DNA from: Amoebophrya sp. A120
Taxonomy: Eukaryota > Protista > Dinoflagellata
NCBI GenBank assembly: GCA_905178155.1
Contig: CAJINV010000006.1
Location: 3,968,130 to 4,032,129 of the forward strand
Direction: 5' to 3'
Length of the DNA stretch: 64,000 bases
Of this stretch, positions 498 through 64,000 are shown in pieces. Within the stretch, counting starts at the first letter, position 1, and every line of letters starts with the position of its first letter. Below the pieces are notes generated by a model that was given only the letters and a program-made list of their open reading frames with translations, had not been told where the DNA came from and ran no database searches. Both the position numbers and the translations under genes were made by a program.

Positions 498-2606
498 CTA
501 CTTCTTTGACGTCGTTATCCTGAGTAAAAACGTCCCCACCCCATAGTCAAGACGGAGATCTCGCAGCACAAATCGATAAGTTTTGGGAGGCAAGCATGAC
601 AAGTTCCTCTCTGTAGTGTAGTGCAGTTTTTCAAGCACAGCCGCAACACAAATCCATCTAGTCATCCTGTTACTGTTCACATCAGGATTACACAAAGTCC
701 AAAACACGACTGGAAACGCCTCTCGTGGGGATGCGCATTACAAATCTTCCTGTAACTGCAAATCTGCATGACAACTCTGGGGTGGGGACGTTTTTACTCA
801 GCATAGTCGTTCCCGCTTGTTTTTGCTCCTCCTGGTCTGTTTTCACCCCGTACATTTTCTTCAACAATTTATGAACTGCAAAAGCATCGTACTCGTAGTA
901 ATTGCTGTTATGCATGACAAATCTCTCTCCGAAGGTAAAACAGCATTACAGATTTGATTTGTAATGCTGAGCTGATTTGTAATGCGATTTATACTAGTAC
1001 GCTACTTTTGCACAGGATACAATTCGTTTTCCTCCAATTTTGCCTGGATATCCGCCTTTTTCTGGCGTATGGGGCTCTCAAATCGGTTACCTTCTCAGCT
1101 GTTCCATGAATTTGTCATGCAAAACTCTCATCAGTATCACTATCATCAAGCTGCTTCGCATGACAAATTTCCGAAGGGCTAAATGAGAGCATCTAAACTT
1201 GTGCCGAACCTGTAATGCAAAGGCGCGTAAGCTTTTCCCTTTCACTTTTGCGGTTCTTGCATTACAAATTTCATGTAACAGTTGAGAATGTAACTGACTT
1301 GAGAACGCCATATGACGGTTTCGCTGGTTGTAGTAGAGCAGGACGAGATACCTGGAGATCACATCAAGAAGAGTGTCGTTGACAATGATTTAGTTCAATT
1401 TTTCATTTTCATCAAAAAAAAGCCTCTTAGGACCACCAGGGTATTCATCTTGTTTATTTTTTGCATGACAAACTATAACTACACAGCACGCAAATAGATG
1501 AAGATTTTAGCAGGATCATTTATATGGCTGTGTTTTATATCAACTGCAAAAATGTCTGGGTCTGGAAACTTGTGATGCAACTGCAAGTCCGTGAACAATA
1601 AGTGCTCTGTGATGCGCCGCAAGCATGACAAGTTTTTTCGTGCTTCTGTGATGCGTATTTCGCATGAGAAACTGTGCTTTTGCATGACAGCCAAGAGGAC
1701 CTCTTGGTGGCCGCGCAATACAGAGTGCAGAGTCATGCCAGACTAGCATGACAATCTTCCAGACCCAGACATTTTTGCATTTGAATTTGATACTTTATAC
1801 CTTCCGTCCACATTAAACCCGGACAAACTGTCCAAAGCCAGCTTCGCATCGTAAATATCGTCGTAGACCACGAAATATGAACTGCAAAAGTATCGTACTC
1901 GTATTGCAATCTATGCATCACAAATCTTTTTCTTACGGTACATCAGCATTACAAATTTTCTTTCTCATGCTGAGGAAATTATTTGTATAGGCATTTCTAC
2001 AAGTATCGAATACTTTTGCAATGCATACGAAAGCGGTTCCCTTGGTTTCCTGCGTGTTTCCTTTGCGGATCTGTCTTATGGACCCGAATTTCCCGAAGAT
2101 GTCGTACAGCTCATCAGTGTATCAAGTAAAAAAATTTTTTCTGGATGCCTGGATGAAACTTGTAATGCTAAAAGTGAATGATAGACGCACTGCGACTGCC
2201 ATTACACGCAGCCAAGCATGACAAATTTCTGAGCTGCTGCCCATCGTGTTCATCTTGTTGCGTATTTTTCCACAAGTTGACATGGCAACCTGCGACTTTG
2301 CATGATAGGTTGTCAGAGGACTCTTTAATAATATTCTAATGCCCATATATGCATCTTCACAGTAGATGCTCGAGTATATGTCATGTCAGAAATGCATCAT
2401 GACAAGTGTACTAGCAATCTCCCAGACCACCCAGACATATTATTTGCGGTCGATACCGAAGTGATTTTGTAGGGAAGATTCCGGACGTAGATTATCCTGT
2501 TCACCTCCGGGGGCAGCCGGACTGATCTCCTTCCCGCGGCTGTGGACAACACGGACGGGTTGCTGGCGATGGGATGCGGAGTCTCGGCGGTCGGCGGGGG
2601 AATCAT
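498..2606 (-). CDS. SF3B6: Splicing factor 3B subunit 6 (p14, U2 snRNP branch-site RRM protein), 7 exons
   Basis: Spliced exons give [82 protein letters not shown]...LLKKMYGV, matching the known p14 sequence. Five introner introns plus one GT-AG intron (~1352-1800). Confidence 0.95.
516..805. mobile_element. Introner family A
   Basis: TIR TATCCTGAGTAAAAACGTCCCCACCCCA; TSD GTCGT. Confidence 0.95.
870..1019. mobile_element. Introner family B
   Basis: TATGAACTGCAAAAG...CTTTTGCACAGGATA; TSD CAATT. Confidence 0.95.
1068..1312. mobile_element. Introner family C
   Basis: TATGG..CTCAA...TTGAGAACGCCATA; TSD TGGCG/TGACG. Confidence 0.9.
1538..1792. mobile_element. Introner family D nested in a GT-AG intron
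   Basis: TGCAAAAATGTCTGGGTCTGGAA...TTCCAGACCCAGACATTTTTGCA; TSD TTTTA/CTTTA. Confidence 0.9.
1876..2027. mobile_element. Introner family B
   Basis: Family TIR; TSD CGAAA. Confidence 0.93.
2120..2455. mobile_element. Decayed introner, D-like
   Basis: TAT..ATA ends and degenerate CCAGAC TIR; TSD diverged; removal restores the SF3B6 frame. Confidence 0.8.
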
Positions 2607-4044: not shown

Positions 4045-4049
4045 CAGCA

Positions 4050-7000
4050 CTAGTTATAGGCAAATCCCGGGGGCCGCGCTGCTGTTCTTGCCTGTGGCGG
4101 ATCATTATTCGCGAGCATCGGTGCCGCTGCGGGAGGAGGCGCTGCTCCTGCATTACAATGAAAAATGCCCCCACCCCCGAACTTGGGAGCATTTGTGTTG
4201 CAAACCTTTCAAAGTGAAACGCTCGCCCTCTTGCATCTATCAGCATCACAGATTTCCAATCACGAGTAGCAAAAATTTGTATTGCAAAAGATCCCAGCAA
4301 GGGCGGCGCTTGTTGTGCCAGCGATGCGATATACGCCTAGAGTCTGCATCAGAAAGACTCATACTCCTTTCATGCATGACAAAAAGTTTTCATTTGGAAA
4401 CCTCGCATCACAAATTCTTGCAGCTTTGGGGGTGGAGGCATTTTTCACTGTAATATCCTGCGCCGGAAGTTCTCTCCCCCCGCCCGTCCGGTGCTCCTAA
4501 ATTCTGCTGCCCCGATATCCTGTGCAAAAGTATCGTATTCGTATAAATGCATTACAAATTTTCTCAGCATCAGAAAGAAAATTTGTAATGCGGATTTACC
4601 TCAAGAAAAAGATTTGTAATGCAAGACTGGCATTTATACGAGTATGTACGATACTTTTGCACAGGATACCCGAAGGCTGTTGACCATGAAGATGACCTCC
4701 TGCTGCGCTGGTGTTTCTGTTTGGCATGTAGTTTTTGGCACTACCGCTAGTACCACCTGGCACGTAATTCCGCAGATATCTCCACTTGTAGAACAGCAGC
4801 GCGCCCATGACCAGGAAGTAGATCGAAATGGCGACCAAACTGATGAATGCGTTGACGAACACCGTGTAGGAAAGCAAGGGGACGCAGTATATTCAGAGGA
4901 AAAATGCCCCCTCCCCATATCAAAATGAAAATCTGTGATGCCGGATTTGTGTACACAAATCGGATTTGTCTTGCGGTGGAGGAGGAGGACTGCAGACAGA
5001 TACAAAGCCCGGAACGGGGTGGCTTAGCAGGGTAGGCACTTAGCATGACAGACATCCGCTCTAGTAGCGTAGCAGCATTACAAATCGCCTGCGAAATGCA
5101 GCGGAAGCCCTGGCGTTGCTCCACTGCAGGACAGACTTGATTTGTGGCCGCAAATCAGCATCACAAATTTTGAGGGAGGGGGGATTTTTCCTCACAATAC
5201 AGTACGCAAAGTGGCCCGGGGTGAACGCCAGCCAGCCGCCCCAGATGTGTATGAATGTGTGAGGATCGAAAACGACAAAATCGAAAAACTTGTCATACGT
5301 AAAATGTAGGGCACTGAAGGCCTGTATTGGGAAGCAGGCAAATGAGACCGATTGTAAGCCTGTAGTTGAGGGGTGCGCAATGTGCTGCCAGAGTAGCATG
5401 ACAGGAGCAGTCTTCTTTGCCCACACAGCATGACAGACCGGACTGGGGTGCAGCTCCCGAAATTTGTCATGCGCCACTTGGAAACTGAGGCTCCAACTGG
5501 TGTCGATATTTTGCATCACAAATCTTTCGATTTTGTCAATTTCGATTCTGACACTTCCATAATGTGCACCCCCAGTGTGAGAAAACTCGTCGCCACCGCC
5601 ACGGAGCGAAGCTCGACTGTAGGCTTGTAACGAAAGTAATATGAACTGCAAAAGCATCGTACTCGTATATATGCATTACAAATTTTCTCAGCATGAGAAA
5701 TGAAATTTGTAATGCGGATTTACCTTAGCAAAAGGATTTGTAATGCATGATTGCAATACGAGTACGATACTTTTGCACAAGATAAGTAACACTGGATCGC
5801 AACGTCAAAAGCGGAGACGGCAGTGCCGGTGAGTTGTGAATTCCAAAAATAATGCTTGGGTCTACTGGAAGGCTGCAGACTTGTGATGCAAAATCCAGAT
5901 CACACAAAAATCTGTGTTGCGCAATTTCCAAAAGCTGTTCATCTTCATTTCATCTCATGCGGGCGACAAGGGATCAAGAGGCAACAAGCGCCAAAGAAGA
6001 ATCTGTAATGCTTTATTTCTGTGTACTATTTTTTGTGTGAAGCAAAACCTGCATTATATATACAACAATCTTCTGCACCTGTCGCTCTCCAGACCCAGAC
6101 ATATTTTTTGCAATGGATATGAAAAGGTAGGCCAACATTTCCGAGCAGATGGAGTACCTGAAGACGAGTTGTACTTGTATCCATAAATTTGGACCATTCG
6201 TCACGCGTCCGAAACAAATTCATATTCAAATGCATTTTTGTACTTACACCCCAATTATCGATCCTGCCGCATCTTGTTCGAACAAGTGGATCAAGAATGG
6301 TACTTCTGGTGCACTTACTTACTTACTCGTGCGAGTGGTATTTCAGCCAGCCACGCACCGGCGCGTTCCACGTGAGCATTCCCACCATTAATGCGCTCGC
6401 CCAAAGGAGTATCGAAGAAAAAAACTTTGTGAAGATGCGCACCATGCAAAGGGAACAATGCGTCTGTCACGCTGGTCATGCATTCTGAGCGCCATCCAGG
6501 CGCGTTTATTCCACGTACGTCAACTGCGCACGACAGGATTTTGCTGTCATCAATGCCAGACAGATACTTCTATTTGTAATGCTGTTCCTCCAATAAAAAA
6601 GTAGTTACACCTACATTCTTTTTTTCTCAAATAACAAGCCCCGGCGGCACCAGAAACGGCGCATGAACTGCAAAAGTATCCTATCGTAATCGTATAAATG
6701 CATTACAAATTTCTTCAGCATGAGAAATAAAATTTGTAATGCGGATTTACCTTAAGGAAAAGATTTGCAATGCATGACTGCAATTACTACGAGTGCGATA
6801 CTTTTGCACAGGATACGGCGCTAGCACCGACATTTTTTCGTACTTGGTGCCGTTGGTGAGGTTACCAAAGATCGACAGCTTTTGCTTCTCGTGCTGCGGC
6901 TGCTCGGCGTCGCTGCCGCTCTGTCCTATCCTGAGCAAAAACGTCCCCACCCCATAGTCAAGTTGAGAATCTAGCAACACAAATCTCCAAATTTTGAGAG

Positions 7001-9376
7001 CTGTGCATCACAAGTTTCCCTCTGCAGTGTAGTTCTGATTGGCAAGAGAAGCCGCATGAGAAAGCCACTTTCACATCCTGTTTACAGCATCACAAATTCC
7101 AAAACTACACGATTGGCATTGGAAATTCCCCTCATGGAGCTGCGCATTACAAATGTTCCTGTCATTGCATATTTGCATGACAACTCTGGTGTGGGAACGT
7201 TTTTACTCAGGATATGTCCGGAAGATGCGTTGCCCGTCTGATGACCTGGTTGTTGTTGACCTTTCGTTCCTATGAACTGCAAATATGTCTGGGTCTGGAA
7301 GATTGCCAGGCTTGTCATGCATATTTTGAATGACCCCTGATGTCTGTGAGGTATGCCCTAGCGTCACAGATTTTTAGAGGGCTTTGCGAAGCCTCTACCG
7401 TGTGAGAAATGCCCTCTCCGCGTAGCACAAACTGGAGTCCTCTTGCACTTGCTGGTCATGCAATACAAATTGAAATTTTTTTAGAATCCAGAGACAGCAT
7501 TACAAGTTAAGAATCTTCCAGAGCCAGATATATTTGCATTTGATAGTTCCGTAGATGCCCTTCGTGAAAAACGTGTCTAGCTGGTCCAGAAAGTATAACG
7601 CTGCGACGCAGCATCCCGCAATGAAAAAAAACAGCAGCCCGATGGTCAACGACTCGGCCCTTCTGTCTTCCGCATTCGGGATATGACAGTGCACTACTCC
7701 GCCTCCTCCTCATTTCTCATGCAAAATCCCAAATCCAGTCACTGCCTTGTAGCTGTAGCACTGCTGGCTGCATGACAAATTCCGGAAGCCCAAACAGTAC
7801 TACAATAGGTACACAAATTTGTCATGCGTAGCCTCCACGTGTGCTGGCTTTTGTAGTGGTGTTCATGCTATACAAATGAGGGGGAGGGGGAGTTGTGCAC
7901 TCTCATTCGGGAACGCCGGGTGTCGCGGGTTCTCTTTCTTGAATCGCTGGTAGTGCGGGGAACTGGAAGCGTATCGTGAGAAAAAAGTGCTACAGTTACA
8001 CACTCTGACGCAGGACGAGCAAGACAGACAACCTCTGTCATGCAGGAAATGCTTTTGCTTGCCAGCGTCATTCTCATTTATTGGTGTTTTCCCTTGGCAT
8101 TACAAGTTTTCTCTGCCATGCAGAGCACATTTGTCATGCTGAAATTCCATCAAATGTGTAACTGTAACACTTTTTTCCTGTGATAAAGCGGCGGTGGATT
8201 CTGTTGTCCCGCTTGCAGTTCCGGTTCTTGCGGACGGCGAAGCAGCACGATCTGTTGTAGCTCCTGCGGCACCTGCTGGCGTGGTCGGGGTACCCGGCTG
8301 CACGACAGGGTTATGGCGTTCTCAAATGTTACATTCTCAGCTGTTACATGATTTGTCATGCAAAATGACCATGAGCCACCAGACGATCGCGCTGCTTCGC
8401 ATGACAAGTTCTCGAATGGCTAAACAGCGTTTAAATCTGTACCAAATCTGTCATGCAAGACGCGCAAGCTCCCTCCTTTCATTTTTGCCATTCTTGCATG
8501 GCAAAGTCATGTAACAGTTGAGAATGTAACAGTTGAGAACGCCATAAGGGTCTTGGCGACCATGTAGTTGCGTGGAAGCCGCATCATCTTCCCGTGACTT
8601 TCTGATTCTGCTTGATATTCTGCCTTGTTTCTCATTATTTTCCGCCAGGAGAACTACTAGATCTCCCGCTCTAGTTATCCCAAGAAAAAAGTGTTACAGT
8701 TACACATTTGTTGTCAATTCAGCAACACAAATTTCTCTGCATGAGAGAGAAAACTTGCATTGCTGAAATCCTACGGGAAAACACGTATGAAACAAGGTTT
8801 GAAAGCATTTCGTGCATGACAGAGGCTGTCTGCCATGCGTGTTTTGCAACACAATGTGTAACTGTAACACTTTTTTCTTGCGATACTAGTAGTACTCCCC
8901 GTTTTGTAGTTCTTGTGAGGGTCGTCGTCGCCGGCAGTACCAGTACCACCAGCGCCGGCGGTTTGCTTCAGAAAGGACCGGAACGCCGACTGGTTCTTTT
9001 TGGCGCTCGAGATCCACGAAGGATTCGGTTTGCGTTTGGGGGAAGCGCCAGAGAGTTTCTTATCCTCAGCCCCATGGTGACGTGTCTCTAGTGGTTGTAC
9101 CTGCTCCTTCGTATTAAGGACGTCGAGAGCATATTGCTTTTTGTCCAGCTGTAGAAACTGCTCGCCATTGAGAAACCCGAACGTGCTGAGAGCGGCGACA
9201 GATATCGCGGTCTGCGGCACGAGGTTGGCTACTAGCGCGGACAACACGAAAGAACAGCGCACGATTCTTCTTGTTCGAGTATGAGGACGAGCTCCGCTTC
9301 CGGCTGCGGTTCTTGGTACAACTACACTCGAAAATGAAACCCCCGACCAGCGGCCGTGGCCGCGTCCCGGCGCCAT
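4050..9376 (-). CDS. Multi-exon hypothetical multi-pass membrane protein
   Basis: Exons between introners join into hydrophobic segments (LTIGLLFFFIAGCCVAALYFL; YTVFVNAFISLVAISIYFLVMGALLFY); stop TAG at 4050-4052. Middle exon boundaries uncertain. Confidence 0.6.
4151..4455. mobile_element. Introner family E
   Basis: TIR ATTACAATGAAAAATGCCCCCACCCCC; TSD TCCTG. Confidence 0.93.
4516..4668. mobile_element. Introner family B
   Basis: Family TIR; TSD CCCGA. Confidence 0.95.
4890..5199. mobile_element. Introner family F
   Basis: TIR TATT..GAGGAAAAAT.CCCCCTCCC; TSD CAGTA. Confidence 0.93.
5250..5561. mobile_element. Introner family G
   Basis: TIR TATGGAAGTGTCAG.ATCGAAA; TSD ATGTG. Confidence 0.92.
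5640..5784. mobile_element. Introner family B
   Basis: Family TIR; TSD AGTAA. Confidence 0.95.
5835..6119. mobile_element. Decayed introner family D
   Basis: GGGTCT..TGGAA / CCAGACCCAGACAT; TSD diverged. Confidence 0.75.
6410..6633. mobile_element. Decayed introner, H/J-like
   Basis: TATCGAAGAAAAAAA...TTTTTTTCTCAAATA; TSD diverged. Confidence 0.65.
6662..6815. mobile_element. Introner family B
   Basis: Family TIR; TSD CGGCG. Confidence 0.93.
6927..7214. mobile_element. Introner family A
   Basis: Family TIR; TSD TGTCC. Confidence 0.95.
7271..7545. mobile_element. Introner family D
   Basis: Family TIR; TSD GTTCC. Confidence 0.95.
7682..7907. mobile_element. Introner family I
   Basis: TIR TATGA.AGTGCACAACTCCCCCT; TSD CGGGA. 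Confidence 0.92.
7972..8185. mobile_element. Introner family H
   Basis: TIR TATC...GAAAAAAGTGTTACAGTTACAC; TSD AAGCG. Confidence 0.94.
8312..8546. mobile_element. Introner family C
   Basis: TIR TATGGCGTTCTCAA.TGTTACATTCTCA; TSD AGGGT. Confidence 0.95.
8676..8885. mobile_element. Introner family H
   Basis: Family TIR; TSD CTAGT. Confidence 0.95.
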
Positions 9377-11341: not shown

Positions 11342-13361
11342 CTACGCCCGATCCCCGAGCTTGTCCGCTTCCACCTTGTTGTTCTGCTTCCGCAGCAATT
11401 CCCGCCCGGTTGCCTTGTGTATCCTGTGCAAAACTATCGTACTCGTAGTAAATGCAGTCACGCATTACAAATTTTTTTCCTAAGGTAAATCCGCATGACG
11501 AATTTCATTTCTCATGCTGAGGGAATTTGTAATGCATTTATACGAGTACGATACTTTTGCAATGCATATTGTAGTCAAAGTCGCAGTTGTGCTCTTCCGG
11601 TAGCCGGTGGGCGCTGCAAAACACGTAGCCGCACCGGCACTCGATGGCACCTGGAGTAGAAGATTATATAGATTTGTTTACATTCATCTTCTTCATCATG
11701 CTGTTTGTCATGCGAAACATCCACAGAAAGGTAGTTTGTCATGCAGAACTACATCAACCATACGCTATAATTACCCGCCAACTTGCACTTCTTGTTGCAC
11801 ACCCAACACCTCGTTTTGTCGGTCTGAACAGGTCGCTCCTTCTTCTCTTCTTCGTCGTCGCCTTGTTTCATCTCGACGTCTTTTTCGCCCTTTTGTTCCT
11901 TCTCCTCCGCTTCTTTCTGCTTCTTTAGTATCTCTTCCTGGTCCTTCTGCTGTTTCTGGGTAAAACACTTCGAGCAGTAGTTTTCCGTTTTCGGGTTGCC
12001 CTGTTGTTGTTCAATAATTAAAATTATTTTTCGTTTATTATTTCCATAGATGTAGATGATACTGAGTGAAGATCAAGTTCAAAGTGCAGCATACTATCAG
12101 TTGCATGACAAATCGAAGAGCAGGAGATCAACATTCCGCGCATGATGACGAAAAAAACCTACGACGAAAAGATGGAACTACATATAGAAGGACTATAATA
12201 CCCAAAACCCGCAGTCGCCCTTACACCTGACCGGCTCGGCGGATTTGTCATCCTTCGTTTCCTCTTTCTTCGCGCCGTCTGCACTGCTGCTCGTATGCAC
12301 TGCAAATATCCCTGGATGTTGTCTGGAAGAGTTGTTGTCCGAGTTTGTCATGCTAGGTCTGATCGACACAAAAGTCTGTATTGCATGACCAGCAAATATT
12401 AAAGCGTTCACTTTTGCTCACCCGATGAAGACAACGGCTGTCATGCGGAATAGGCATCGTCGAGGAGCCTTTTCAAAACCTGTGATGCTGGGGCCCGCAT
12501 TCCAGACCTTCTGGGTCATGCGAAACCTGCATGACAAACCTTGCAGTCTTCCAGACGCCGGAGACATATTTGCACTAGATAGCTCGCCGCACTCGCCGAA
12601 GTCCCTGACACAACCGTCCCCTTCACGAGGAACACCGTCGCGCCGCTTGCGACCTTTTTGTCTGCCAGAACGTCGTCGTCGGTGAGGACTTTACCTGACA
12701 ATCGGATGAAAAGGATCTTCTCTTCATCCTATCTACAGCAAGACAAAACTGCACACTCATGTCAAGTTCCGCATCACAAAAAAAGTATTACTCGACGTAA
12801 GCAAGTAGAAGTAAGTACTCACACTATACCTTTGAACACCAGCTTCTGGACTTCTATTGGGAATTTCTGTTCCGTTTTCTTCGCTATCAAGTCCTTCAAG
12901 TCCGGTATCCTGTGCAAAAGTATCGTATTGCAATCATGCATTACATATTCTTTTGTTAAGGTGAATCCGCATTACAAATTATATTTCTCATGCTGATCAA
13001 ATTTGTAATGCATTTATACGAGTACGATACTTTTGCAATGCATATCCAGGGTTTTCACGCATTTTGTCTTGTCCGCTTCTATACTGACAGGTGTGGACCC
13101 GGAGACTTTTATCGTGAAGGTCAGCAAGTTTTCGGGTGGTATTGACGGGGCAGCACGGGAAGCAGAATCATCTGCTGGCTCGTCTTTTGCGTCTTTGTTC
13201 TCGTCTGTTGAAGTGCCGGTTTTGTTGTCTCCTGTTGGGTTGTCGTTTGCGTTGCCTGCGGTGGAAGAGGAGGAGGTTGCTGGTTTTTCTTCTTCGGGTT
13301 TGTCTTTGTTCAGGACCAGCTTGTCCTCCGGCGGAGGGGAAACTTCCGGGGTTCCCGACAT
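11342..13361 (-). CDS. Ubiquitin-like + A20 zinc finger + AN1 zinc finger protein (ZFAND/SAP-like)
   Basis: UBL: [34 protein letters not shown]20: [22 protein letters not shown]1: [40 protein letters not shown]. Confidence 0.88.
11420..11568. mobile_element. Introner family B
   Basis: Family TIR; TSD TTGTG/TTGTA. Confidence 0.93.
12294..12581. mobile_element. Introner family D (diverged)
   Basis: Family TIR; TSD GCTCG. Confidence 0.88.
12906..13044. mobile_element. Introner family B
   Basis: Family TIR; TSD TCCGG/TCCAG. Confidence 0.93.
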
Positions 13362-14936: not shown

Positions 14937-17323
14937 TCACTTTTTCCCCCTTCCCTTTCCGCCCTTTCCACCCCCTCTTTTCGACGTTTTCTTCACGACG
15001 CCCTTCTTCGCTTTCTTCTCGCTGGCCGCCTGAAACTGCCCCGTTTTGCTGTTCACCTTGGAACTAAACCCCCCGTTTTGCACCTTGTCGAACGTCTTCA
15101 AAACCGCCGAAGTCTCGTTTTTCTCCACCTTTATGGCGCTCTCAACTGTTACAATCTCAGCTGTTACATGATTTGTTATGCAAAATTACCTTGACTATCA
15201 ACGCCATCAAGCTGCTTCGCATGACAAATTCTCAGACGGCCAAACAGGCTGAGAATCTGCGCCAAATCTGTCATGCAAGACGCGCAAGCTCCTTCCTTTC
15301 ACTTTTGCGATTCTTGCATCACAAATTCATGTAACAGTTGAGAATGTGACGTTTGAGAACGCCATAACCTTCGCCCCGCTGTTGGAACCCCCCGCAACGA
15401 GTTTCTTCTTCCCGTATGACAGTGCACAACTCCCCCTCCCCCTCATTTGTGATGTAAAGTCCCATATCCAAGTGCTGCCTTGTGGCACCGTTTGCATGAC
15501 AGATTATGGAAGCCGAAACAGTAAGACACTACACGCATGAACTTGTCATGCGCAGGCTCCATGTGCGCTGATGTTTCTATTGCTGCTCATGCAGCACAAA
15601 TGAGGGGGAGGGGGGGTTGTGCACTCTCATATCCCGCCCCGCTTCTTCACCACTTCTTCCTTCTTCGCCAGTCGGTCGAACTTCCCTCGGGAGCCGGAGG
15701 AGGTCTGGGCGCGTTTAAGGGCCTCTTTCAGACCGTCTTTACCCCGGTTACTGTTCGTGCCCACGTTCTCGCCTTTGAATTGGTATTTTCGACAAATTTT
15801 TTTACGTTTCAATTTTTGGGTATTGTTCTTTCTATTTGTATTTGCAGATCTTCCGCAACGACCGCATGACAGATGAGGCTATACCAGCAGCAAACATTGC
15901 ATAGGACATCAAGATCAAGTAGTACAACAAAGTTGAGTATTAGTATTTGTCTTTTTATACCTGTTTTCTCCAGAGAAACCGGTGCGAGTTTGAAGCCGGC
16001 CTGTTCCACTTTGTTCCGCATCTCCCGTAGTTTCTGTTTTGCCATGTTCAGCTTTTTTTCCGTTTTCCGCTTCTTAAACGGGTCCTCCATCGGGTCGGTT
16101 TTCCCGTCCTCTTTAACCTCAATGGCCCACTCCGCATTCTCCGCGTTCTGCTTCACAGATTTGTAGCCGTACCGCCGGGACCAGCCGCCGACCGTTTCGT
16201 CCCACACCATTTTGCTGCGCTTCTTCTTCTCGATACCACGAGCCTCGGCGAATTTCTGAGGTTGAAATTTTTTCTTTTTGACTCCGAGTACTATAAACCG
16301 AAGGAACTTACGAATGCTGCTGCCAAGCTGTAGTTCACATCTGACGAAACACGCAGGAGGGATACAAGAGCTATGGCTAGTATGCTGCAATTAGCATGCG
16401 TATAAACTAAATTTGAATTAAAATTATTTCATCTATCTGGTATAAGATGAAGCTCTATACCTCCCATCTGGTTTTTTCCTTCTGTTTCGGGCAGGGCTTC
16501 TGTCTGGGCAGCCGATAAACCTCCGCCGGACTGTCGAAGTGGCCCCGTAACACCGCGACGGTGCCCGTTTCCGCGGACTCCTATCCAGCAAAAAAACTGT
16601 GTAAGTGTAAGTTTGTAGGAAGATCAGCATCACAAATGCGTTTTGCATCACAGGGAAATAAACCTGTCATGCGCAGCTAGTATCAGTGGAAACACCTATG
16701 AAAGTGGCCTGTGACCACGCACCTCTAGCATGACAAGTGTATAACAGTTCTTTGGCATTTCCTGCATCACAGACTTAGTACACCTACACAGTTTTCTTCT
16801 TGCATAACTCCTGCGGTAAACTGAAGAGTTTATTCACCAACAATTGCACGTTGTCCCGCGTCGCGGTGACCAAGGCCTTGTTCTTCGCCGACAAATTGTT
16901 CAATTTTGACTCATCGATTTTAATTGGAGTAATGTCGAAAGCGGTCATATCCGCGAAGTTGTAGGTTAAATTGTCCTCTTTATTCTCCGGCACCGCGGAA
17001 AGCAGCTCCACTTGCTGCCGTTCCACGATTTTTGGCTCTTTGTCTTTGTTCAGCTGCACAACGGCCTTGGAGGCGGTCGTTGGTGTTGAAGTCGTCGTCG
17101 TTGCTGCTGCGACTGCAGTTGTACTAGCAGAAGAAGTTGTACTGGATGCAGGCGTAGCGCTGGGTACAGCAGAAGCTGGGTCGTTCGTCTTGTTCACAAC
17201 TGTTTCCACAACATCTGCAGTTGTGCAAGTCTTTCTCGCCTCTCCCACTGTTGAAGCAGCAGGAAGGGGGGAAGCTACAACAGCCGTCTTCTCGGCCGTA
17301 CTATTCTCGTCCATGGTCGTCAT
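14937..17323 (-). CDS. RRS1: Ribosome biogenesis regulatory protein RRS1
   Basis: Motifs TRDNVQLLVNKLFSLP, QKFAEARGIEKKKRSKMVWDE..GGWSRRYGYK and AQTSSGSRGKFD. Three introners and two GT-AG introns. Confidence 0.9.
15132..15366. mobile_element. Introner family C
   Basis: Family TIR; TSD ACCTT. Confidence 0.95.
15415..15631. mobile_element. Introner family I
   Basis: Family TIR; TSD TCCCG. Confidence 0.95.
16582..16806. mobile_element. Introner family J
   Basis: TATCCAGCAAAAAAACTGTGTAAGTGTA...TACACAGTTTTCTTCTTGCATA; TSD ACTCC. Confidence 0.92.
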
Positions 17324-18819: not shown

Positions 18820-19010
18820 GGACAACAACGCAAATTGTTGGAGTGCCCACTTCAACAATTTGCACAACGCAAATTGCTGAAGTGGTTACTTCAACAATTT
18901 GCTGCACGACGCGAATTGTTAAAGTGGCCACTTCAACAATTTGCGTTGTGCAAATCACCATTTCAGTAATTTGCACAACGAAAATTGTTGATCGTGCAGC
19001 TTTCAACAAA
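18820..19010. repeat. Degenerate ~40-bp palindromic tandem repeat
   Basis: Units resembling CACTTCAACAATTTGC-N-GCAAATTGTTGAAGTG. Confidence 0.8.
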
Positions 19011-46365: not shown

Positions 46366-49330
46366 CTAAAAGCAGCAGCTCCTGGCACCAGTCCCCGGCT
46401 GCACGGCTTGAACAACCTGTGAAGAACGGACAGACCTCTCCTGTCCTACACCTACTTCCTCACACACATACAGCTCCCGCCACTTTGTCGTGAAAAACTC
46501 CAACACCGGGGTCCTCGTCGTGCACGATCTGACGGCGTCAGCACCAGCAATACCATCTGCTGCTCCTTGTGCCGCAGCCGCCCCCTGCTCAACACAAATA
46601 AGCCACTCGTCCTGTTTCAACAACCGCATCAAATCCACACCCCGCCGCCCGTTCTGCTCCGTCACGAGCAGCGTTCGCAAGAACCGCTTGGCTTGCTCAC
46701 TCACTTCCGGATACACCCTAACTGGGTCCACGATCGGTCTCACCAAGTCCCCGTCTTCGTCGTACACCATAAAGTCCTTGTCCGTCAGCCTTCTCTCTTG
46801 CATCCTCAACCGCTCTTTTCGCCCCCTGTACCCGGGTGCCGGTATTTCCCAGTTTTGTGACTTGATCTGGTCGAACAGCGGGACCGGGGCGAAGTGGAAA
46901 AACGGCAGCTTTCCGAACAGAAAACAGTATATCAAATGCAAAAGTGTCTGGGTCTGGAAGAATGCGCGACTTGTCATGCAGATTTTCCATGACTTGTGAG
47001 GTCTGGAATGCAGGAACTAGCATGACAGATTCTGCGAGATCTCTGTCATGCCTGTCCCGCATGAGAAACTCCTTCTCAACCAGGTCAAAAGTGGACAGCT
47101 TTTGGTAAGCATGCAACACAGACTTTTACAGGAAGCAGACTTAGCATGACAAGTTGCAACCTTCCAGACCCAGACATATTTGCAATGCATACAGTACGCG
47201 GTGACGCCAATGGCCCAGACGTCCTGGGACTTCATGGACCATTTCTGTTTGTACTCGTAGTCCACGGCCTCCTATGAAATGCAAAAGCAGCGTACTAGTC
47301 TAAATCGCATGACAAATTTCCTCAGCATGAGAAATGAAATTTGCAATGCGGATTTAACTTGAGAAGGAAATTTGTAACGCATGGCTGCGATTACTACGAG
47401 TATGATACTTTTGCACAGGATACCTCCGGGGGGAAAAATTCGTAGGTACCCTGGTCGTCCCGCGTGAAAACAGAAAATTTGTCATCTTGTTCCTGTTGTG
47501 CTGTGCTGTCGACGTCATCAACGGGATGAATTATGGCCGCACTGTTAGAGTCGCCCGGTTGAAGCAGATGTGTCGTGCTGTCAGAAAAAGTTGTGCTTTT
47601 CGGAGCTGTTGTTGTAGTTCCCCCATTTCTATGCAGCTCCGGCTCCGTGAATTCAAAGGCCCGGCCGAAATCGCAGAGCTTCCCGACCCCGAGGTTGTCA
47701 ATCAGAAAATTTTGCGGCTTGACGTCTCTATGGGCGATTTTCAAGTTGTGAAGGTACGCCACCGCGGAAACCAGATCGAAAACCAACATCAAGTGCAAAA
47801 GTGTCTGGGTCTGGAAGGTTGGAACTTGTCATGCTGACTCTGGATCATGCAAAAATTTGTGCTGCATGATTACCAAAAGCTGTCCACTGTCAACCAAGTT
47901 GGGAGGCAGTTTCTCATGCAGCATAGACATGACAAAGACCTCTCAGAGTCTGTCATGCTAGGTCCCGCATTCCAGACATCATGGATCATGGAAAACCTGC
48001 ATGACAAGTGTACACTCTTCCAGACCCAGACATTTTTGCATTTGTTAACCAACTGCCGGGCACACGTTTCCGGGTAGTAGTGGTGGGTTGCTGGGGGCGG
48101 AGGTTTTGTGGTTGATGTCACTTGTTCAACACCGGGTTCTTGTGAAGAAGATGTAGTAGTTGTCCTTGTCCTTCCATGAGAGGTTGTTACGTCATTTTGA
48201 AGAAGCGCTTCTGTCTCGCTCACGATTCGTCTCCTTTGTATCTTTCCAACATAATGTTGTCCTCCAGCCTGCTCTCGTCCAGTAGTTGCAGTAGCAGAAT
48301 TTCCCCCGGTTTTAAAATTTTTACTCTTTTGATGCTTTTTTTCTTCTTCCACTTCTATCAGCCTCTGCAGCCCGGGGATCACAAAGGAGTTTAAATACCT
48401 GTTCTGCGCCCAATCGTTTTCAAAAGCGATTTTCCTCACCTCGTCCTCATCCAACTCCTCTTCCCATTTATTTTCCTCCAAACTCGCACCGAATTTGTCG
48501 CATGACAGTGCACAACTCCCCCTACCCCTCATTTCTCATGCAAAATACCGAATGCACATCCTGCCTTTAATCACTCTGCACATGACAAGTTTTGGACACC
48601 CAAACAGGACTACATTCCATGTACGGATTTGTTATGCAAAAGCTACATTTGTGGCATTGCTTCTGTTGCTGTTCGTGCAATACAAATGTGGGAGGGGAGT
48701 TGTCGTGCACTCTCATATGTCGCAACACGGCTCGAGAAACATGTAGAGGTATTTCTCCTTGACCAAAAGAATCGGTTCGTGCAGCCGAATGAAATAATTA
48801 TAATTTTCGCAATTTTTATTTGTCATGCTGTTTTTACTACAATGTAAATGAAGCTTCTCCATGATGGCGATCTCCTCGTAAACCAAATCGAGTTTCGTCC
48901 TGGGCTTTTTACTTTTCCGTGCCTGCAAGAGCCCACCACTCCCTCCTGGGGCGTCGATTTTCTGCTTTCTCAGTTGCGGTTCGAAGAAACATTTTACGGC
49001 GCAGTTTTTTAATGTGCTGTTCGGGGACGTTGGCGTGGCGACAGTTGCGCTCTCTCCTGCTGTTCTGGTCGTTGTACTCCTGCTGCTGCTGCTACTACTG
49101 CCTTTCTTGATCACGCCGAAAGTGCCTTCACCTAGGAGAGTGTCGTGGTAGATGAGACGATACTCCTCGTTTGTGCCGGTGGTCTCCGTAGCGGAAAGCC
49201 GAAAGATCTCAATATCCTGATCCGTAGTATGCCCATTCTTTCCTCTCTGCCCTTGTTTCGGCGCATCTGGTTTGATATCTGGCGTCACGTGTACGAACGA
49301 AAACGGCCGGGAGCTGCTGCTGCTGGACAT
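46366..49330 (-). CDS. Ser/Thr protein kinase, CaMKK-like
   Basis: [65 protein letters not shown]; four introners. Confidence 0.92.
46930..47191. mobile_element. Introner family D
   Basis: Family TIR; TSD CAGTA. Confidence 0.95.
47273..47422. mobile_element. Introner family B
   Basis: Family TIR; TSD CCTCC. Confidence 0.95.
47787..48047. mobile_element. Introner family D (inverted relative to 46930-47191)
   Basis: Family TIR; TSD ACCAA. Confidence 0.93.
48501..48717. mobile_element. Introner family I
   Basis: Family TIR; TSD TGTCG. Confidence 0.93.
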
Positions 49331-50217: not shown

Positions 50218-53200
50218 TCAAATCCCGTCCGTCACAATGACCGCACTTTGCAGTGGACCGCCGGACGAGTTCACTCGGTGCATGTTCACGCTTTGCTCAA
50301 AATAAACACCAACATCCGGCTCCCGCTCGACAGTTTCAACATCATGTAGTTGATCAGCGGGTTGTTCATCTGCAAGAATTGTTTGTGTTGCTGCGGCAGA
50401 ACCAGAACCATCCGTCTTCTCCTTCCTACTCAAATGCACAATCAGTTCCAAGTTCACCGGCATTTTCATCTGTTGCACCAATTTCATGAAATTCTCTGCC
50501 GCTCGGGCACTATCGCGGCTTTCAAGAAACGGCAACACTACGTTCGAATACGCGTTGTGGGTTATCCGCAACTCAAACTCCAGCTGATTCCTCTCGCCGA
50601 CGTCGACGAAAATCCCCCTCCTGCGAAACACGTACCCCGGGGGGGACGTGAAACTGCCCTCGCGGTCGTTGCGGAGCTCGAAAAATCGGTTGGCGTGGTG
50701 GAACCGGGGGTCGGGCTTTTGCGGCGTTTCGGCGGTCAAGTACTCGAAATGATCGAGGTAAGGCTTAGCATTGTCCTGCTGAGAAGTCGGAGCCGCCTTG
50801 GGAGGTGTTGCCGTAGGTCCAGCTTGATGTGCAGCTGCTGCGACCTCCACTGCAGGAGGGGAAGGAGTTGTTGACACGAGTTTTGACAAATTCGGCGAAA
50901 CGACGGAGTTCAACCGGATCCGCAACACCGTGTAATGCTTGGATCTTGGAACGAATGGCCGGTATGACAGTGCACAACTCCCCCTCGTTTGTCATGCAAA
51001 ATACCAAATCTACGTCCTGCCCCTACACACTATCTGCATGCCAAATTTTTAGACAACCTTAAACAGTACTACAAGCTACCGTATCTTCCAGATTTGTCAT
51101 GCGGAAGCCGCATATCTGCGGTTGCTTGTATTGCTGTCCATGCAATACAAATGAGGGGGAGGGGGAGAAGTTGTGCACTGTCATAGCCGCTGCCCTGCTT
51201 GCACTGATGACCGTGAGGTCTGCAGGTCCAGCTCTTCCTCGAGTTTCAGCTTTGACATGACTTGCTGCATCCCAAAGTCCTGCATGCCATCGTATTTATC
51301 AAATGCAAATATGTCTGGATCTGGAAACTTGTGATGCTGATCTGTGGATGACTGAAATACTTGCCAATGCAGCCAAGCATGACAAGTTTGCAGAACTACG
51401 CTCTCTCATGTTTAGTCCGCATGAGTAGAAACTGCGCTTTTGTATGACCAAAAGGGGCGTCTTTTTTGTTAGTCATGCAACACAGATTATGCAGGAATGT
51501 AGGACTAGCATTACAAGTTCCATGTTTCCAGAACCAGACAGATTTGCAATGCGTAGTATTTTTGGCTCATCAAATCTTCCAGCAAATCCAGAAAGTACCC
51601 AAGATGTTTGTCCGTGTGCAGTGCCGTATTAGGACGAGAGGGAATTTGCTGTTGATGCTGATGCTCTGCCGATGATCCATGTTCTTGTTGTGCGGGGGTA
51701 CAACTAGTCGCTTTCTTTACCAACTTATCCCACGAAAAAAGTGGTACAGTTACACATTTGCTGATGCTGTAACTTCAGCATCACAAGTTTTCTCTGCATA
51801 ACAGAGAAAACTTGCAATGCAAAGATCAAAAGGGAAAACAGGAAGGAAATGAAGATCCAAAGCATTTCCTGCAAGAGAAACGTTGGCAGTGTTGCTGGTC
51901 TTGCAACACAGTGTGTAACTGTAACTCTTTTTTCTTCCCATACAACTGTCGCCGTTCCACAAATTTTTTCAGCTGCTCCTTCAAAGTGAGTTGCGCGGCG
52001 GCGTGTCTCTCGCTTTCCCGTTCCTCTTGTTCTAGTTCGAAGATACCGTTGTCGTCGTCATTACCGCTATCGTTGTTTGCTCCTGATGAAAATCCAGGCA
52101 AATGATCCAGCTGTATCAAACAAAAAAGTGTTTACATAAACGGTTTTCATAGATTGCAAATATGCATGACAAATTTTGCCTAGAATGCATGCTATGCATG
52201 ACAAATTTCAATTTGGCGCGTTCTGTGATGCATTACTGCATCACAGATTCCATTAACGTTAACACTTCTTGCTGTGATAAGCTGGTACGTCATTCGAGAC
52301 TCGAAGAACCTCCCGCCCCAGAACTGGCTATCATGGCCGTGGTTTCTATTGTTCTCGAGTCCGTACTGTTCCCCCGTGTTCAAACCCGCCTCGTACCGCG
52401 CCTCAACCGCCCGCGCTTCCTCATCCTTCAGAAACCGGAACTTTTTGCAAATCTTCTCCATATTCACGGACAGTTCCGTTTTGATCACATTCGAACCACA
52501 TACAATGTGTTATGGGAGTGTCAGGACCGAAATCGACAAAGTCGAAATTGTCTGTAATGCATAAAATGCTACAGAAAAAGCGACGCTATTGCAGAGGATG
52601 CAAGGAAGGCGGATTATAGTCCTGGTATACGGGTCAAATGCTGGGCATGGGCTGCCGACTAGCATGACAGACGGCAGCTCTTTTGCCCTAAACCGCATGA
52701 CAGATTCGCTTCCAGAACGGGGAAAATTTGTCATGCGCCGACTACAAACTGTGGGTCTAACTGGCTACTTTTCCATTTTGTCAATTTCGATTTTGACACT
52801 TCCATACGTGTTTCTCGTCCTGTATTAGAACCGACCGCTGGGACGCATCATAATCGGTGTAGAAGTCGAGGTTATGAACTGCAAAAGCATCGTACTAGTA
52901 TAAATCGCATGACAAATTTGCTCAGCATTACAAATTGAATTTGTAGTGCTGATTTGCCTTAATTTGTAATGCATGAATGCAATTACTTCGAGTACGATAC
53001 TTTTGCACAGGATAGAGGTTTTTTTCCAGCAAATCCAGTAACACCATCCAGGGTTGGTGGTTCCGGGTGACGAGGGCTTGGATTTCGATGTTCCTGCTAT
53101 TGCTACTAGTCGTAGTTCCCGGAGAACGAGGACCCACACTTGGCTGTGCTGGCGGTCGCGGTGGTCCTTCCACCCCCTTCCCCGTGTCTATTTCAATTGT

Positions 53201-62400: not shown

Positions 62401-64000
62401 TGGTGCCCGTCGTTGCGCTAGACGCCGTGCTCGACCGGACACTGCTCATCATCTCCTGAGAGCCATCTTCCGTGCCGTCGTAGGATTGCTCGGTCTCTCC
62501 GGAAGTCAGCACCGTCCCCCGGGACATCGAGCTCCTCCGGGAGCTCCGGCTCTTCCGGCCCTTTATGTATGCTGTGCAAAAGTATCGCACTCGTAGTAAT
62601 TGCAATCATGCATCACAAAACTTTTTCTTAAGGTAAATCAGCATGAGAAACTCCTTTTGTCATGCTGCGAAAATTTGTAATGCGATTTCTACTAGTACGA
62701 TGCTTTTGCAATGCATATCATCTCCTCGCCGGCGAATTCCGATTTCCTGCCCTTTTTCCCTTTGCCCTTCATGGTCTCCCGTTTCTTTAAGATCGGCCGC
62801 AAATCCGGATTTTCTTCCCGGAACTTCCGCAGTCGTTCCTCGGATTCCAGCGCCTTTTCCTGCACCGCTTTTCTCATCAGTGAGAGTTGCCGGTACATGC
62901 GCCAGGTTTTTTGAATCGTGATGGCCGCCCCGTTATGCATTGCAAAAGTATCGTACTAGTAGAAATTGCAATACAAATTTCCTTAGCATGAGAAATGGCA
63001 TTTGTCATGCGGATTTGCCTTAGCAAAAAGATTTGTAATGCAAGACTTGCATTCATACGAGTACGATAGTTTTGCACACGATACCCGTTCTGGTCGTTTT
63101 GCCGCATGGTCCTTCGTGCCCGCTTCTATCAAATGCAAAAATGTCTGGGTCTGGAAGGTTGGAGCTTGTGATGCTAACTTTGGACTCTACAAAAATCTGT
63201 ATTGCATGATCAGCAACAGGAGTCTAGTTTGTGCTACGCGGGGAGGGCATTTGTCATGCGGAATAGGCATCAGGAGGCTTTCTAAAAATCTGTGATGCTA
63301 GGTCATGCATTACAGACATCCTGGGTCATGCAAAATATGCATGACAAACCCGGAAACATTCCAGACCCAGACATTTTTGCATTTCATAGCTTCATCTCGT
63401 GAATGATGATCGCGGTGATCAACCCGACCGGCGCGCCTAGGAACCCCGTATGAACGTGCGCAATTCCCCCTCGTTCTCATTTCTCATGCAAAATCCAAAT
63501 CCAGTTGTTCCCTTGGATCAGTATTATGCATGACAAATGCTGGAAGCTGCCCAAACACAGCACTACAATCCGTGCATAAACTTGTCATGCACAGCATGCA
63601 CGTGCGCTGGTGTTTGTATTGCTGTTCATGCTATACAAATGAGGGGGAAGGGGAGGGGGAGGGGGAGCTATGTGCACTCTCATACCCCGTCATGAAAATC
63701 CACATCACAAAGTGGATCAACCTGGCCAGCAAGCAGTACTCGACGAGCGGGTAGTATCCAGAAAAAAAAGCGTGTAAGTGTAACTTTCTTTGAGGAACAG
63801 CATCACAAATTTGCTCTACATGACAGAGAAAACCTGTCATGCGTGGTTTGTAAGGGAAAACACACAGGAAAAGAGGACTTCATGGCTGTCTGGCATGACA
63901 GGCGTAACTCTGTTGCATCTTCTGCAAGACAAATTTACACTTACACAGTTTTTTTCTCGCGATAGGTAGTCCCCGGTGGAGTGAATCATCATGAACTGCA
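56463..64000 (-). CDS. Ion-transport (voltage-gated channel-like) protein with IQ motif; 5' end outside the window
   Basis: IQ motif AAITIQKTWRMYRQL; S2-like FFCIECVLFVFYVIEYSLYL; pore/S6-like FDSIPTSMMYTLFFLLGEWVTPDFETYTGIFLCYFQCFLGLIFFGILVGALSD; ~18 introners; acidic Tyr-rich tail. May be more than one gene. Confidence 0.72.
56596..56809. mobile_element. Introner family H
   Basis: Family TIR; TSD CATTC. Confidence 0.93.
56863..57021. mobile_element. Introner family B
   Basis: Family TIR; TSD TACAC/TACCC. Confidence 0.88.
57208..57537. mobile_element. Introner family F
   Basis: Family TIR; TSD CTTGC. Confidence 0.92.
58116..58394. mobile_element. Introner family D
   Basis: Family TIR; TSD CAGCG. 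Confidence 0.93.
58451..58731. mobile_element. Introner family A
   Basis: Family TIR; TSD CCCCA. Confidence 0.95.
59430..59713. mobile_element. Introner family A (inverted relative to 43241-43519)
   Basis: Family TIR; TSD TGTGA. Confidence 0.94.
59968..60187. mobile_element. Introner family J
   Basis: Family TIR; TSD GGCGT/TGCGT. Confidence 0.92.
60236..60429. mobile_element. Introner family A (short, internally deleted)
   Basis: Family TIR; TSD TCGCC. Confidence 0.93.
60494..60735. mobile_element. Introner family I
   Basis: Family TIR; TSD GCTGT/GTAGT. Confidence 0.88.
60775..61035. mobile_element. Introner family D
   Basis: Family TIR; TSD TAAAA. Confidence 0.94.
61449..61734. mobile_element. 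Introner family A
   Basis: Family TIR; TSD CCGTT/CCATT. Confidence 0.93.
61787..62048. mobile_element. Introner, D-like (diverged)
   Basis: CTGGGTCTGG / CAGACCCCGACA; TSD ATCGT. Confidence 0.87.
62110..62367. mobile_element. Introner family K
   Basis: Family TIR; TSD CCTTC. Confidence 0.93.
62568..62717. mobile_element. Introner family B
   Basis: Family TIR; TSD TTATG/TCATC. Confidence 0.92.
62934..63083. mobile_element. Introner family B
   Basis: Family TIR; TSD CCCGT. Confidence 0.95.
63127..63388. mobile_element. Introner family D
   Basis: Family TIR; TSD GCTTC. Confidence 0.95.
63449..63684. mobile_element. Introner family I
   Basis: Family TIR; TSD CCCCG. Confidence 0.92.
63755..63964. 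mobile_element. Introner family J
   Basis: Family TIR; TSD GGTAG. Confidence 0.93.

Follow-up and report, generated by a model that had tools for sequence, protein, structure and literature searches.

We report a short motif that recurs in the introners and in the ordinary GT-AG introns of a 64,000-nt stretch of Amoebophrya sp. A120 DNA (the window), and whose copies lie whole helical turns apart and at fixed distances from element ends, an arrangement that is new here. The reading we favour, at a rough probability of 0.45, is that the motif is the site of a candidate double-stranded-DNA-binding, probably bending, host or domesticated factor, arrayed by introners for their mobilisation and kept by the host in ordinary introns.

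The full motif is 12 letters long (H-GCAT-B-ACA-RR-T). Its strict form, GCAT[GCT]ACA, occurs 253 times in the window (129 plus, 124 minus), against 8.2, 10.0 and 15.7 copies expected from Markov simulations of order 1 to 3 and 37 from order 4, so the enrichment proposed in the initial annotation of this DNA holds. A purine follows directly in 247 of the 253 copies, in agreement with the AA or GA described there, and all the places cited were found within 2 nt (1463, 11706, 11737, 12103, 12771, 15864, 21714, 22058, 22137 and exonic 48821). At the core, 85-98% of bases are fixed and some letters are sharply excluded (G precedes the motif in 1%, A takes the middle position in 3%); the motif forms a loose palindrome (TGY-N3-RCA). 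We did not find it in print, the sole GCATGACA match in an Amoebophrya paper being a RACE primer. Eukaryotic ApT methylation follows the consensus VATB, and the main form of the motif fits it, including the lack of A after AT; a role as target of a base modification marking intron DNA, such as adenine methylation at CATB, is nevertheless barely credible, because A replaces T at 16-19% of sites, removing that ApT, and because the rest of the motif and its phasing would be left unexplained.

Strict copies reach 11.8 per kb in introners (227 in 19,174 nt) and 8.8 per kb in GT-AG introns (14 in 1,596 nt; 6.7 by hand without the tandem-repeat centrin intron), well above background, whereas CDS (0.19), RNA-supported UTR (0.29) and intergenic DNA (0.15) stay at background level, which upholds the rarity claimed for exons and intergenic DNA. 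Two places outside introns are as follows.

48821..48828, minus strand: exonic chance copy in a kinase-like ORF, from motif scan and translation.
19000..19960, no strand assigned: intergenic repeat region with six strong copies, five of them phased, at anchor spacings 52, 32, 189 and 32.

A post-hoc excess just past stop codons in the window (4 of 5 non-coding matches, p 7e-5) was not clearly replicated in a second assembly, where a match lay within 100 nt at 3 of 18 ORF ends.

All 80 introners of the window and 421 of 427 in the second assembly, each TAT-ended with a 5-bp target site duplication (TSD), carry the motif, with 15 family maps covered. The window holds 12 families. Their ends are terminal inverted repeats (TIRs) beginning with TAT, and the TSD is exact in 47 of 62 introners and has one mismatch in 12. 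Twenty-one elements are skipped in RNA-type contigs and are thus removed from mRNA; splice joints were taken from these contigs, with raw RNA runs X9 (90 reads) and X10 (4 reads) left out. Representative introners, with no strand assigned, are listed below.

516..805: family A (about 285 bp); RNA joint 510/806; 0 sense and 5 antisense motifs.
33512..33797: family A, opposite orientation; RNA joint 33506/33798; 6 sense and 0 antisense motifs.
4516..4668: family B (about 150 bp, 19 copies in the window); motif order ++--, with anchor spacings of 31, 21 and 18.
32089..32350: family C1 (about 262 bp, six sites); RNA joint 32083/32351.
29195..29451: family C2 (about 255 bp); RNA joint 29190/29453.
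1538..1792: family C2, nested in the SF3B6/p14-like gene inside GT-AG intron 1352..1800.
25088..25396: family D (about 306 bp), from sequence.
33838..34157: family E (about 320 bp); RNA joint 33832/34158.
28735..29045: family F (about 310 bp); RNA joint 28729/29046.
15415..15631: family G (about 220 bp); RNA joint 15409/15632.
7972..8185: family H (about 213 bp), from sequence.
30239..30447: family I (about 212 bp); RNA joint 30231/30446.
15132..15366: family J (235 bp); RNA joint 15126/15367.
31503..31759: family K (about 257 bp); RNA joint 31497/31760.
52114..52279: family N (about 164 bp), the only window copy; the second assembly has four more.

The order of two forward and then two reverse copies described for family B is seen in 4516-4668, the second forward copy being weak. 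In 29195-29451 the TSD is mismatched, and its splice sites are therefore the better fixed. The families had been called unrelated; we do not retain this, as all have TAT ends and 5-bp TSDs, and B/H, H/I and C1/C2 have internal pieces in common. The motif had also been called universal, which is true of the short families but not of two longer elements or of a 139-nt insertion at 58912 that has no motif.

32407..33043, no strand assigned: young 637-bp TAT element; TSD exact, TIR 24/25; one weak motif match.
30793..31352, minus strand: 560-nt hybrid intron with a GT donor and an acceptor 4 nt past the ATA end; one motif match; RNA joint 30792/31353, letters between unread.

The 637-bp element, having moved recently with one weak match, counts against the favoured reading. 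No RNA-contig joint spans it (region 28300-36000), but a local exon repeat breaks contigs there, so the missing joint speaks neither for nor against its splicing. Two long TAT elements considered as autonomous copies proved to be introners with GC-rich nested insertions.

Outside introners, the motif was found in 8 of the 9 GT-AG introns of the window, against 0.33 in shuffles.

1352..1800, minus strand: GT-AG intron of what we take, from its translation, to be an SF3B6/p14-like gene (no Pfam match for the first exon piece); RNA joint 1347/1797; one antisense motif at 1463.
11651..11774, minus strand: GT-AG intron of an A20 zinc-finger gene (zf-A20 match); RNA joint 11648/11773; two sense motifs 31 bp apart.
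12001..12201, minus strand: GT-AG intron with RNA joint; single antisense motif at 12103.
12695..12829, minus strand: GT-AG intron with RNA joint; antisense motifs at 12738 and 12771, 33 bp apart.
15773..15960, minus strand: GT-AG intron of RRS1 with RNA joint; single antisense motif at 15864.
16258..16460, minus strand: motif-free GT-AG intron of RRS1; an RNA piece ending at 16255 bounds the donor side; boundaries from sequence.
21687..21832, minus strand: GT-AG intron of centrin (EF-hand domain matches); boundaries inferred from the open centrin frame; antisense motifs at 21714 and 21801.
21992..22152, minus strand: centrin GT-AG intron, with boundaries from sequence; its four motifs have anchor spacings of 32, 32 and 19.
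22363..22611, minus strand: centrin GT-AG intron, with boundaries from sequence; a 30-bp tandem repeat contains or adjoins six of its seven motifs.

As had been reported, these introns lack TIRs (1-8 of 20 positions matching), and no TSD remnant was found at them (2 of 18 positions); they carry one to a few copies, with 31-34 bp pairs as in introners. The exception noted earlier, intron 16258-16460, has no match even at a PWM score of 7. In the second assembly, 10 of 22 predicted GT-AG introns carry the motif compared with 24 of 278 controls (p 2e-5). These predictions come from a stricter intron finder, which recovered 7 of the 9 known window introns (the acceptor being wrong in two of them) and made 2 false calls; a first version was dropped for its 307 noisy candidates. 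Because about half of the introns predicted in the second assembly and 1 of 9 in the window lack the motif, it is not required for splicing.

In the main rival, a single transposase would move all families and bind the motif as its subterminal repeat, the copies in GT-AG introns being functionless relics or repair patches of old introners. Intermediates exist, namely the hybrid intron 30793-31352, a candidate with a weak introner match (L018:1731-1890) and the following element.

22683..22871, no strand assigned: degenerate introner of family B within centrin rather than a GT-AG intron, with one strong motif (22773); read from sequence, no GT-AG pair restoring the centrin frame and the TIR matching family B.

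GT-AG donors are GTAT in 7 of 9 window introns, like the N-TAT donor of introners, and the next exon begins with G in 8 of 9. Nearly all ancestral introns are also reported lost in core dinoflagellates in the available part of bioRxiv 2020.10.14.339549. Against relics, a neutral-decay model that erases the TIRs leaves a motif match in 3-11% of elements, compared with the 8 of 9 observed, and the GT-AG copies are accompanied by neither TIR pieces nor, after masking, flanking homology. Furthermore, in the sections of PMC7789003 available, canonical introns make up 98.6% of the intron positions common to A25 and A120, which means that many of them are old. The earlier suggestion that canonical introns are eroded introners thus fails for neutral erosion, while erosion with selective retention could still account for them. 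We consider this rival unlikely, though far from negligible.

Three molecular roles had been offered for the motif: branch-point analogue, pairing element and protein-binding site. Sense and antisense copies are equally frequent in introners (159 and 169) and GT-AG introns (10 and 10), and 5 of the 8 motif-bearing GT-AG introns have antisense copies only. All sites of family A point in one orientation, and 516-805 is spliced with antisense copies only. Among 21 spliced introners, the nearest sense motif is 36-102 nt from the 3' splice site or absent. Of 5 variable positions, 3.16 match between inverted copies and 3.08 between random pairs, whereas the TIR arms covary (207 versus 118), and three introns have a single copy. 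Given the lack of strand bias, the antisense-only spliced introns and the absence of covariation, the motif is not a branch point, and a role as pairing element is not supported. An action in RNA of any kind, including binding by a guide RNA or an RNA-binding protein, is very unlikely: confinement to introns, a mean motif-to-motif pairing probability of 0.44 on folding, the loose palindrome and a core with the UnAC shape of branch points would suit it, but the strand symmetry and distances above do not, the period is 10.4 and not 11, and Rfam gave no match. The protein-binding site survives, on double-stranded DNA rather than RNA, as occurrence on either strand together with whole-turn spacing points to a likely DNA-binding protein site.

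Across introners, spacing was best fitted by a period of 10.5 with the anchor at G+1.5 (mean cosine 0.58 versus a shuffle maximum of 0.40; 0 of 600 shuffles), and phasing persisted without the 31-33 class (0.51 versus 0.36), in adjacent pairs and in subsets of 8 or 10 of the 12 families (0 of 500 shuffles each). With 15 families, the period was 10.4 (bootstrap 10.3-10.5), the signal falling to -0.04 at 11.0. The outermost anchors lie 38.5-40.5, 46.5-50.5 or 58.5-61.5 bp from the element end in 27 of 30 ends (R 0.68). Two observations count against the favoured reading: element lengths show no periodicity (R at most 0.38), and in the three added families 2 of 8 intervals are off phase.

A helical period also brings in chromatin, with the motif as a positioning sequence whose shape, rather than bases, is read by nucleosomes or DVNP. 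The period of 10.3-10.5 overlaps nucleosomal values, the commonest family measures 150 bp, and a loose 10-bp rhythm of A/T steps surrounds the motif, with a TTGC half-site one turn upstream. However, the fixed core bases with their sharp exclusions argue for base-specific reading, a 114-bp family exists, and, where nucleosomal DNA places GC steps opposite the A/T peaks, the GC step here is roughly in phase with them. We regard this explanation as improbable.

Among replicating lineages, 7 of 280 core columns are polymorphic compared with 622 of 1,283 interior columns, a contrast partly built in by defining sites by majority. After insertion, rare changes in core bases occur at 0.43-0.76 of the interior rate (pooled, 2.2% versus 3.8%). 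Spacing shifts of at least 3 bp affect 194 of 1,476 intervals with no preference for whole turns, and no phase-preserving indels were found among introner intervals. The array is thus fixed among replicating lineages and weakly kept after insertion, and behaves as if kept mainly by mobilisation and not by splicing at each locus, a reading absent from the initial annotation. Weak core retention and these shifts weaken an in-place host role for the array. In addition, where convergence of unrelated transposons had been proposed, one common mobilisation machinery is as plausible. End-phasing and constraint among replicating lineages also favour the single-transposase rival, as they match the subterminal arrays described in the available text of PMC6188088 and PMC1636448.

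In those sources, subterminal transposase-binding repeats (IS607/IS1535 TnpA, hAT Hermes, the Emigrant/Lemi1 MITE) are short, multiple and internal to the ends; in IS1535 they are 9-bp motifs in helical phase, 20-60 bp from the end, and in hAT elements they occur in both orientations. Introners likewise hold several copies at set, phased distances inside their ends. Unlike such repeats, one motif is common to some 15 TIR-divergent families, fills the whole element and, rather than being confined to them, recurs in TIR-less host introns (8 of 9 and 10 of 22). Paramecium IESs, removed by domesticated PiggyMac, are also short, lie within genes, derive from transposons and have a 10-bp helical signature that is interpreted as looping of the DNA; in them lengths are periodic and removal is from DNA (PMC3464196), whereas here internal sites are periodic, lengths are not, and removal follows transcript direction. 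IHF, Fis and HMGB1 are host bending cofactors of transposition, and resemble the favoured factor as proteins on one helix face that help a short DNA loop; the ACARRT half of the motif presumably resembles HMG-box sites. We know of no host bending cofactor that marks introns genome-wide.

Under the favoured reading of a bending factor, the predicted protein would read the motif on double-stranded DNA, and four to seven sites on one helix face would loop an element of 110-330 bp, a length near or below the DNA persistence length. Looping would load a transposase at the ends, where TAT ends would be cut and moved, leaving TIR sequences free to diverge from family to family as long as they keep the self-complementarity that the RNA hairpin needs. 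Selection by the host would maintain the copies in GT-AG introns, their most plausible role being that of a DNA intron mark that aids co-transcriptional splicing; this is the weakest of the three inferred steps. Farhat et al., in the available sections of PMC7789003, raise the open question of how Amoebophrya, with no known transposase or U1, manages to splice its tens of thousands of non-canonical introns and to spread them, and report that U1 snRNA was not detected in the lineage. A bolder version, which we hold to be doubtful, is that a helix-phased factor, perhaps a domesticated transposase domain, licenses the movement of every introner family and flags intron DNA for co-transcriptional splicing, making tens of thousands of non-GT-AG insertions tolerable without detectable U1. 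A host role, if true, would mean that introns carry a signal read in DNA and not in RNA; a transposon role alone would mean that one machinery, measuring to the ends in helical turns, is needed by some 15 TIR-divergent families. The defined 12-bp double-stranded site and its spacing grammar provide a bait for the candidate protein and yield genome-wide predictions: the motif would be conserved in shared canonical introns, splicing efficiency would vary with motif count, and A25 would have the motif.

The elements agree with published A120 introners (Farhat et al. 2021, PMC7789003; Gozashti et al. 2025, PMC12130899) in having inverted repeats that begin with TAT and include an A run, in their short direct repeats and strain families, and in splicing at non-canonical ends; the published donor classes GT, CT, AT and TT fit the N-TAT donor. 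In the portions available, these descriptions treat terminal repeats only; an internal common motif, phasing and copies in canonical introns were not found there. On a wider scale, the family-B TIR pattern had no match in viral contigs, and a triple-motif pattern matched there at one locus (2 matches in 5.6 kb) and in prokaryotes 7 scattered times versus 5.3 expected, both attributable to chance. The 5-bp TSD and YA..TR ends of introners fit, we assume, hAT elements. In the part seen of file 8 of PMC12130899 (22 of 58 rows), A120 entries are mostly classed as 'TIR DNA, Unknown'.

The strict octamer GCAT[GCT]ACA occurs 253 times in the window, compared with 8-16 copies expected under Markov models of order 1-3 and 37 under order 4, and the EM form of the motif (H-GCA[T/A]-B-A[C/G]A-RR-T-Y) has 428 matches at a score of at least 10 (27 by chance). 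About 14 genes, every one of them encoded by the minus strand, lie in the window (47.5% GC). They are studded with elements of 110-330 bp that start with TAT and end with ATA; the 5-bp target duplication is exact in 47/62 of them, and their features are those of A120-type introners, described for the parasitic dinoflagellate Amoebophrya in the portions of PMC7789003 used for comparison. Strict copies reach 11.8 per kb in 80 introners and 8.8 per kb in the nine GT-AG introns, versus 0.19 in coding sequence, 0.29 in UTRs and 0.15 in intergenic DNA. The motif coordinates given in the initial annotation were all confirmed, as was the rarity it noted in exons and intergenic DNA. The density in canonical introns exceeds that in other non-coding DNA (p 1e-12); a single tandem-repeat intron of the centrin gene supplies 5 of the 14 strict canonical copies, and leaving it out lowers the GT-AG rate to 6.7 per kb by hand count. 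At score 12, eight of the nine GT-AG introns have a match, compared with 0.33 in dinucleotide shuffles. The proposed universality held for all 80 introner elements, each with at least one match, and failed for a TAT element of 637 bp, which has a single weak match, and a 139-nt insertion with none; a 560-nt hybrid intron, a further exception, has a single match.

Replication was sought with a family-independent triple-motif pattern over metagenome contigs, which matched 153 loci in 20 of the 64 parts, 152 of them from one assembly (JACKZZ01); the remaining locus, L098, looks like a chance match. The merged loci comprise 484 kb with 427 TIR elements of the window's families and three further ones, and 421 of these elements match the motif, although families B and F were ascertained by the motif-based choice of loci, whereas neighboring elements were not. 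None of the loci overlaps the window, and the strain could be the same or another. A motif-blind finder gave 26 GT-AG candidates, reduced to 22 after dropping four for introner-homology overlap or duplication; 10 of these unvalidated candidates carry the motif, in 9 sense and 6 antisense copies, and a decayed introner may be among these ten; the count for AT-matched non-coding tiles is 24 of 278 (p 2e-5). Together with the 8/9 in the window, this shows that the motif marks many ordinary introns, as initially proposed, but not all.

Splicing was followed in contigs of runs X3 and X4, whose RNA status is the tool's guess, although these contigs skip GT-AG introns too. Of the 58 joints for positions 1-17400 (X3 and X4), the 15 listed skip 10 introners and 5 GT-AG introns; between 28300 and 36000, 14 joints of X4 contigs skip 11 introners and one hybrid intron, the other two being short and within one element. 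Both ends are thereby RNA-confirmed for 5/9 GT-AG introns, and the boundaries of the RRS1 intron (16258-16460) and three centrin introns follow from the reading frame. Mismatched target duplications in RNA contigs (2114/2456, 28729/29046, 29190/29453, 30792/31353) leave a single possible cut rule: on the gene's strand, the intron begins 1 nt ahead of TAT and extends 4 nt beyond the terminal ATA (N-TAT...ATA-NNNN). This agrees with the donor classes GT/CT/AT/TT of Table S4 in the consulted part of PMC7789003, and with the host's GTAT donors; canonical introns have G|GTAT in 7/9 cases and not GTAAGT. According to PMC7789003, U1 snRNA went undetected in the Amoebophrya group. Nearly all introners lie within coding sequence (20.6 kb), UTR and intergenic DNA (16.4 kb) holding about three.

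A pairing element and a branch-point analogue, both of which would act in RNA, had been among the initial suggestions. Folding does pair motif copies (mean 0.44), as it would any inverted repeat. Sense and antisense copies are equal in number, 5/8 motif-bearing GT-AG introns have antisense copies only, and three have just one copy. Family A introners hold every site in one orientation, and two of them are spliced with opposite contents: 516-805 (0 sense, 5 antisense) and 33512-33797 (6 sense, 0 antisense). Of 5 variable positions, inverted copies share 3.16 and random pairs 3.08, whereas TIR arms, unlike motif copies, covary (207 double changes versus 118 expected). Equal strands, antisense-only spliced introns and lack of covariation speak against an RNA signal, which we hold to be very improbable.

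Spacing is regular on the scale of the DNA helix. Within windows picked post hoc, same-orientation pairs at 31-33 bp occur in 9/12 family maps (1.6 expected), divergent pairs at 38-42 bp in 7/12 (1.4) and convergent pairs at 41-44 bp in 5/12 (1.1). A phasing test that corrects for its own search across period and anchor put the period at 10.5 and the anchor at G+1.5; the mean cosine is 0.58 versus a shuffle maximum of 0.40 (0/600); the value is 0.51 once the 31-33 class is removed, and phasing persists in adjacent pairs alone and without families sharing modules. The 15 larger families give a period of 10.4 (10.3-10.5), and at 11 the signal is lost; 6/8 intervals of the three new families keep the phase, and at 27/30 element ends the outermost site is about 39, 49 or 60 bp away. 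GT-AG introns repeat these pair spacings, with 31, 33, 32, 32 and 19 in the window and, for the second assembly, 34, 33 and 21; spacings of 87, 28 and 111 are off phase. Phased spacing of this kind is the trace that a protein touching one face of B-DNA would leave. Our preferred explanation, at a probability of about 0.45, is a host or domesticated factor that binds double-stranded DNA. Through its phased sites it would bend the short elements and place the transposase at their TAT ends, and the host would retain it in ordinary introns as well. Chromatin positioning, in which the sites would be read by shape, seems unlikely, and a modification site most improbable of all; a remainder of the probability is assigned to no explanation.

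Copies of one family differ at 0.30 of their interior sites; the figure is 0.14 for TIR sites and 0.04-0.09 for the five core motif positions. Polymorphic columns number 7/280 in the core versus 622/1,283 in interiors. Rare variants give another picture, core sites carrying 2.2% versus 3.8% for interiors (ratios 0.43-0.76) in five families not chosen by the motif pattern. Intervals are shifted by at least 3 bp in 194/1,476 cases, mostly by 3 or 6, and no return to phase was seen among them; length changes after insertion are chiefly +3 or +6 bp in all families, non-coding DNA included, a mutational bias toward short duplications. These results imply an array kept tight in replicating lineages and loose in landed copies. 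With four to seven redundant sites, host selection on any single one could be hidden.

The canonical introns had alternatively been viewed as eroded introners. GTAT donors (7/9), a G after the acceptor (8/9) and visible intermediates speak for such an origin. GT-AG introns of the window have no TIRs (1-8/20 positions matching) and no target-duplication remnant (2/18 positions; 15/44 in the predicted introns), and, after masking, the flanks of their motifs match no introner family. Because simulated decay of real introners until TIR loss keeps a motif match in 3-11%, not 8/9, the neutral form was rejected. The copies may instead stem from erosion coupled to selective retention, from gain de novo, or from introner patches copied into these introns. 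That the sites serve the transposase only, the GT-AG copies being relics, is a less probable reading than the DNA-binding factor.

In design the array works like subterminal repeat arrays (PMC6188088; PMC1636448, as far as covered) and resembles Paramecium IESs in its helical signature (PMC3464196, likewise), but it is set apart from the former because it spans families and enters host introns. Searches of the openly accessible literature on Amoebophrya introners, on GCATGACA, on TGTCATGC with Syndiniales, and on introner periodicity and DNA motifs in splicing found no report of the motif. In the portions available, neither PMC7789003, in its main or supplement text, nor PMC12005148 contains 'GCAT', and 12/14 supplement files of PMC12130899 lack GCATGACA; PMC9860276 and bioRxiv 2020.10.14.339549 were also compared in part. 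Figures S19-S25 of PMC7789003 (images), files 13-14 of PMC12130899 and subscription papers could bear on novelty.

Further features of the window are as follows.
32407-33043: the 637-bp TAT element, young, in a coding region, with exact 5-bp TSD and TIR 24/25 but no A run or motif array; it offers a natural way to ask whether splicing or mobility requires the array.
17354-20331: intergenic region that three 40-bp direct repeats delimit; it has tandem units of 31, 32 and 39-42 bp and phased motif copies at 19000-19960.
6582, 11324, 24114, 56420: strong motif copies 17-48 nt past stop codons, an excess without clear replication in the second assembly.
44300-46200: motif-free GC-rich block (up to 69% GC); similar inserts lie inside second-assembly introners L014:505-1608 and L036:6184-6998.
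39500-42330: diverged duplicate of the 5' region of a DPH5-like gene, containing two decayed introners (40617-40886, 42017-42331).

The family consensus maps also show a recurring, weaker half-site, TTGC, which precedes the motif by one turn (9-11 bp upstream).
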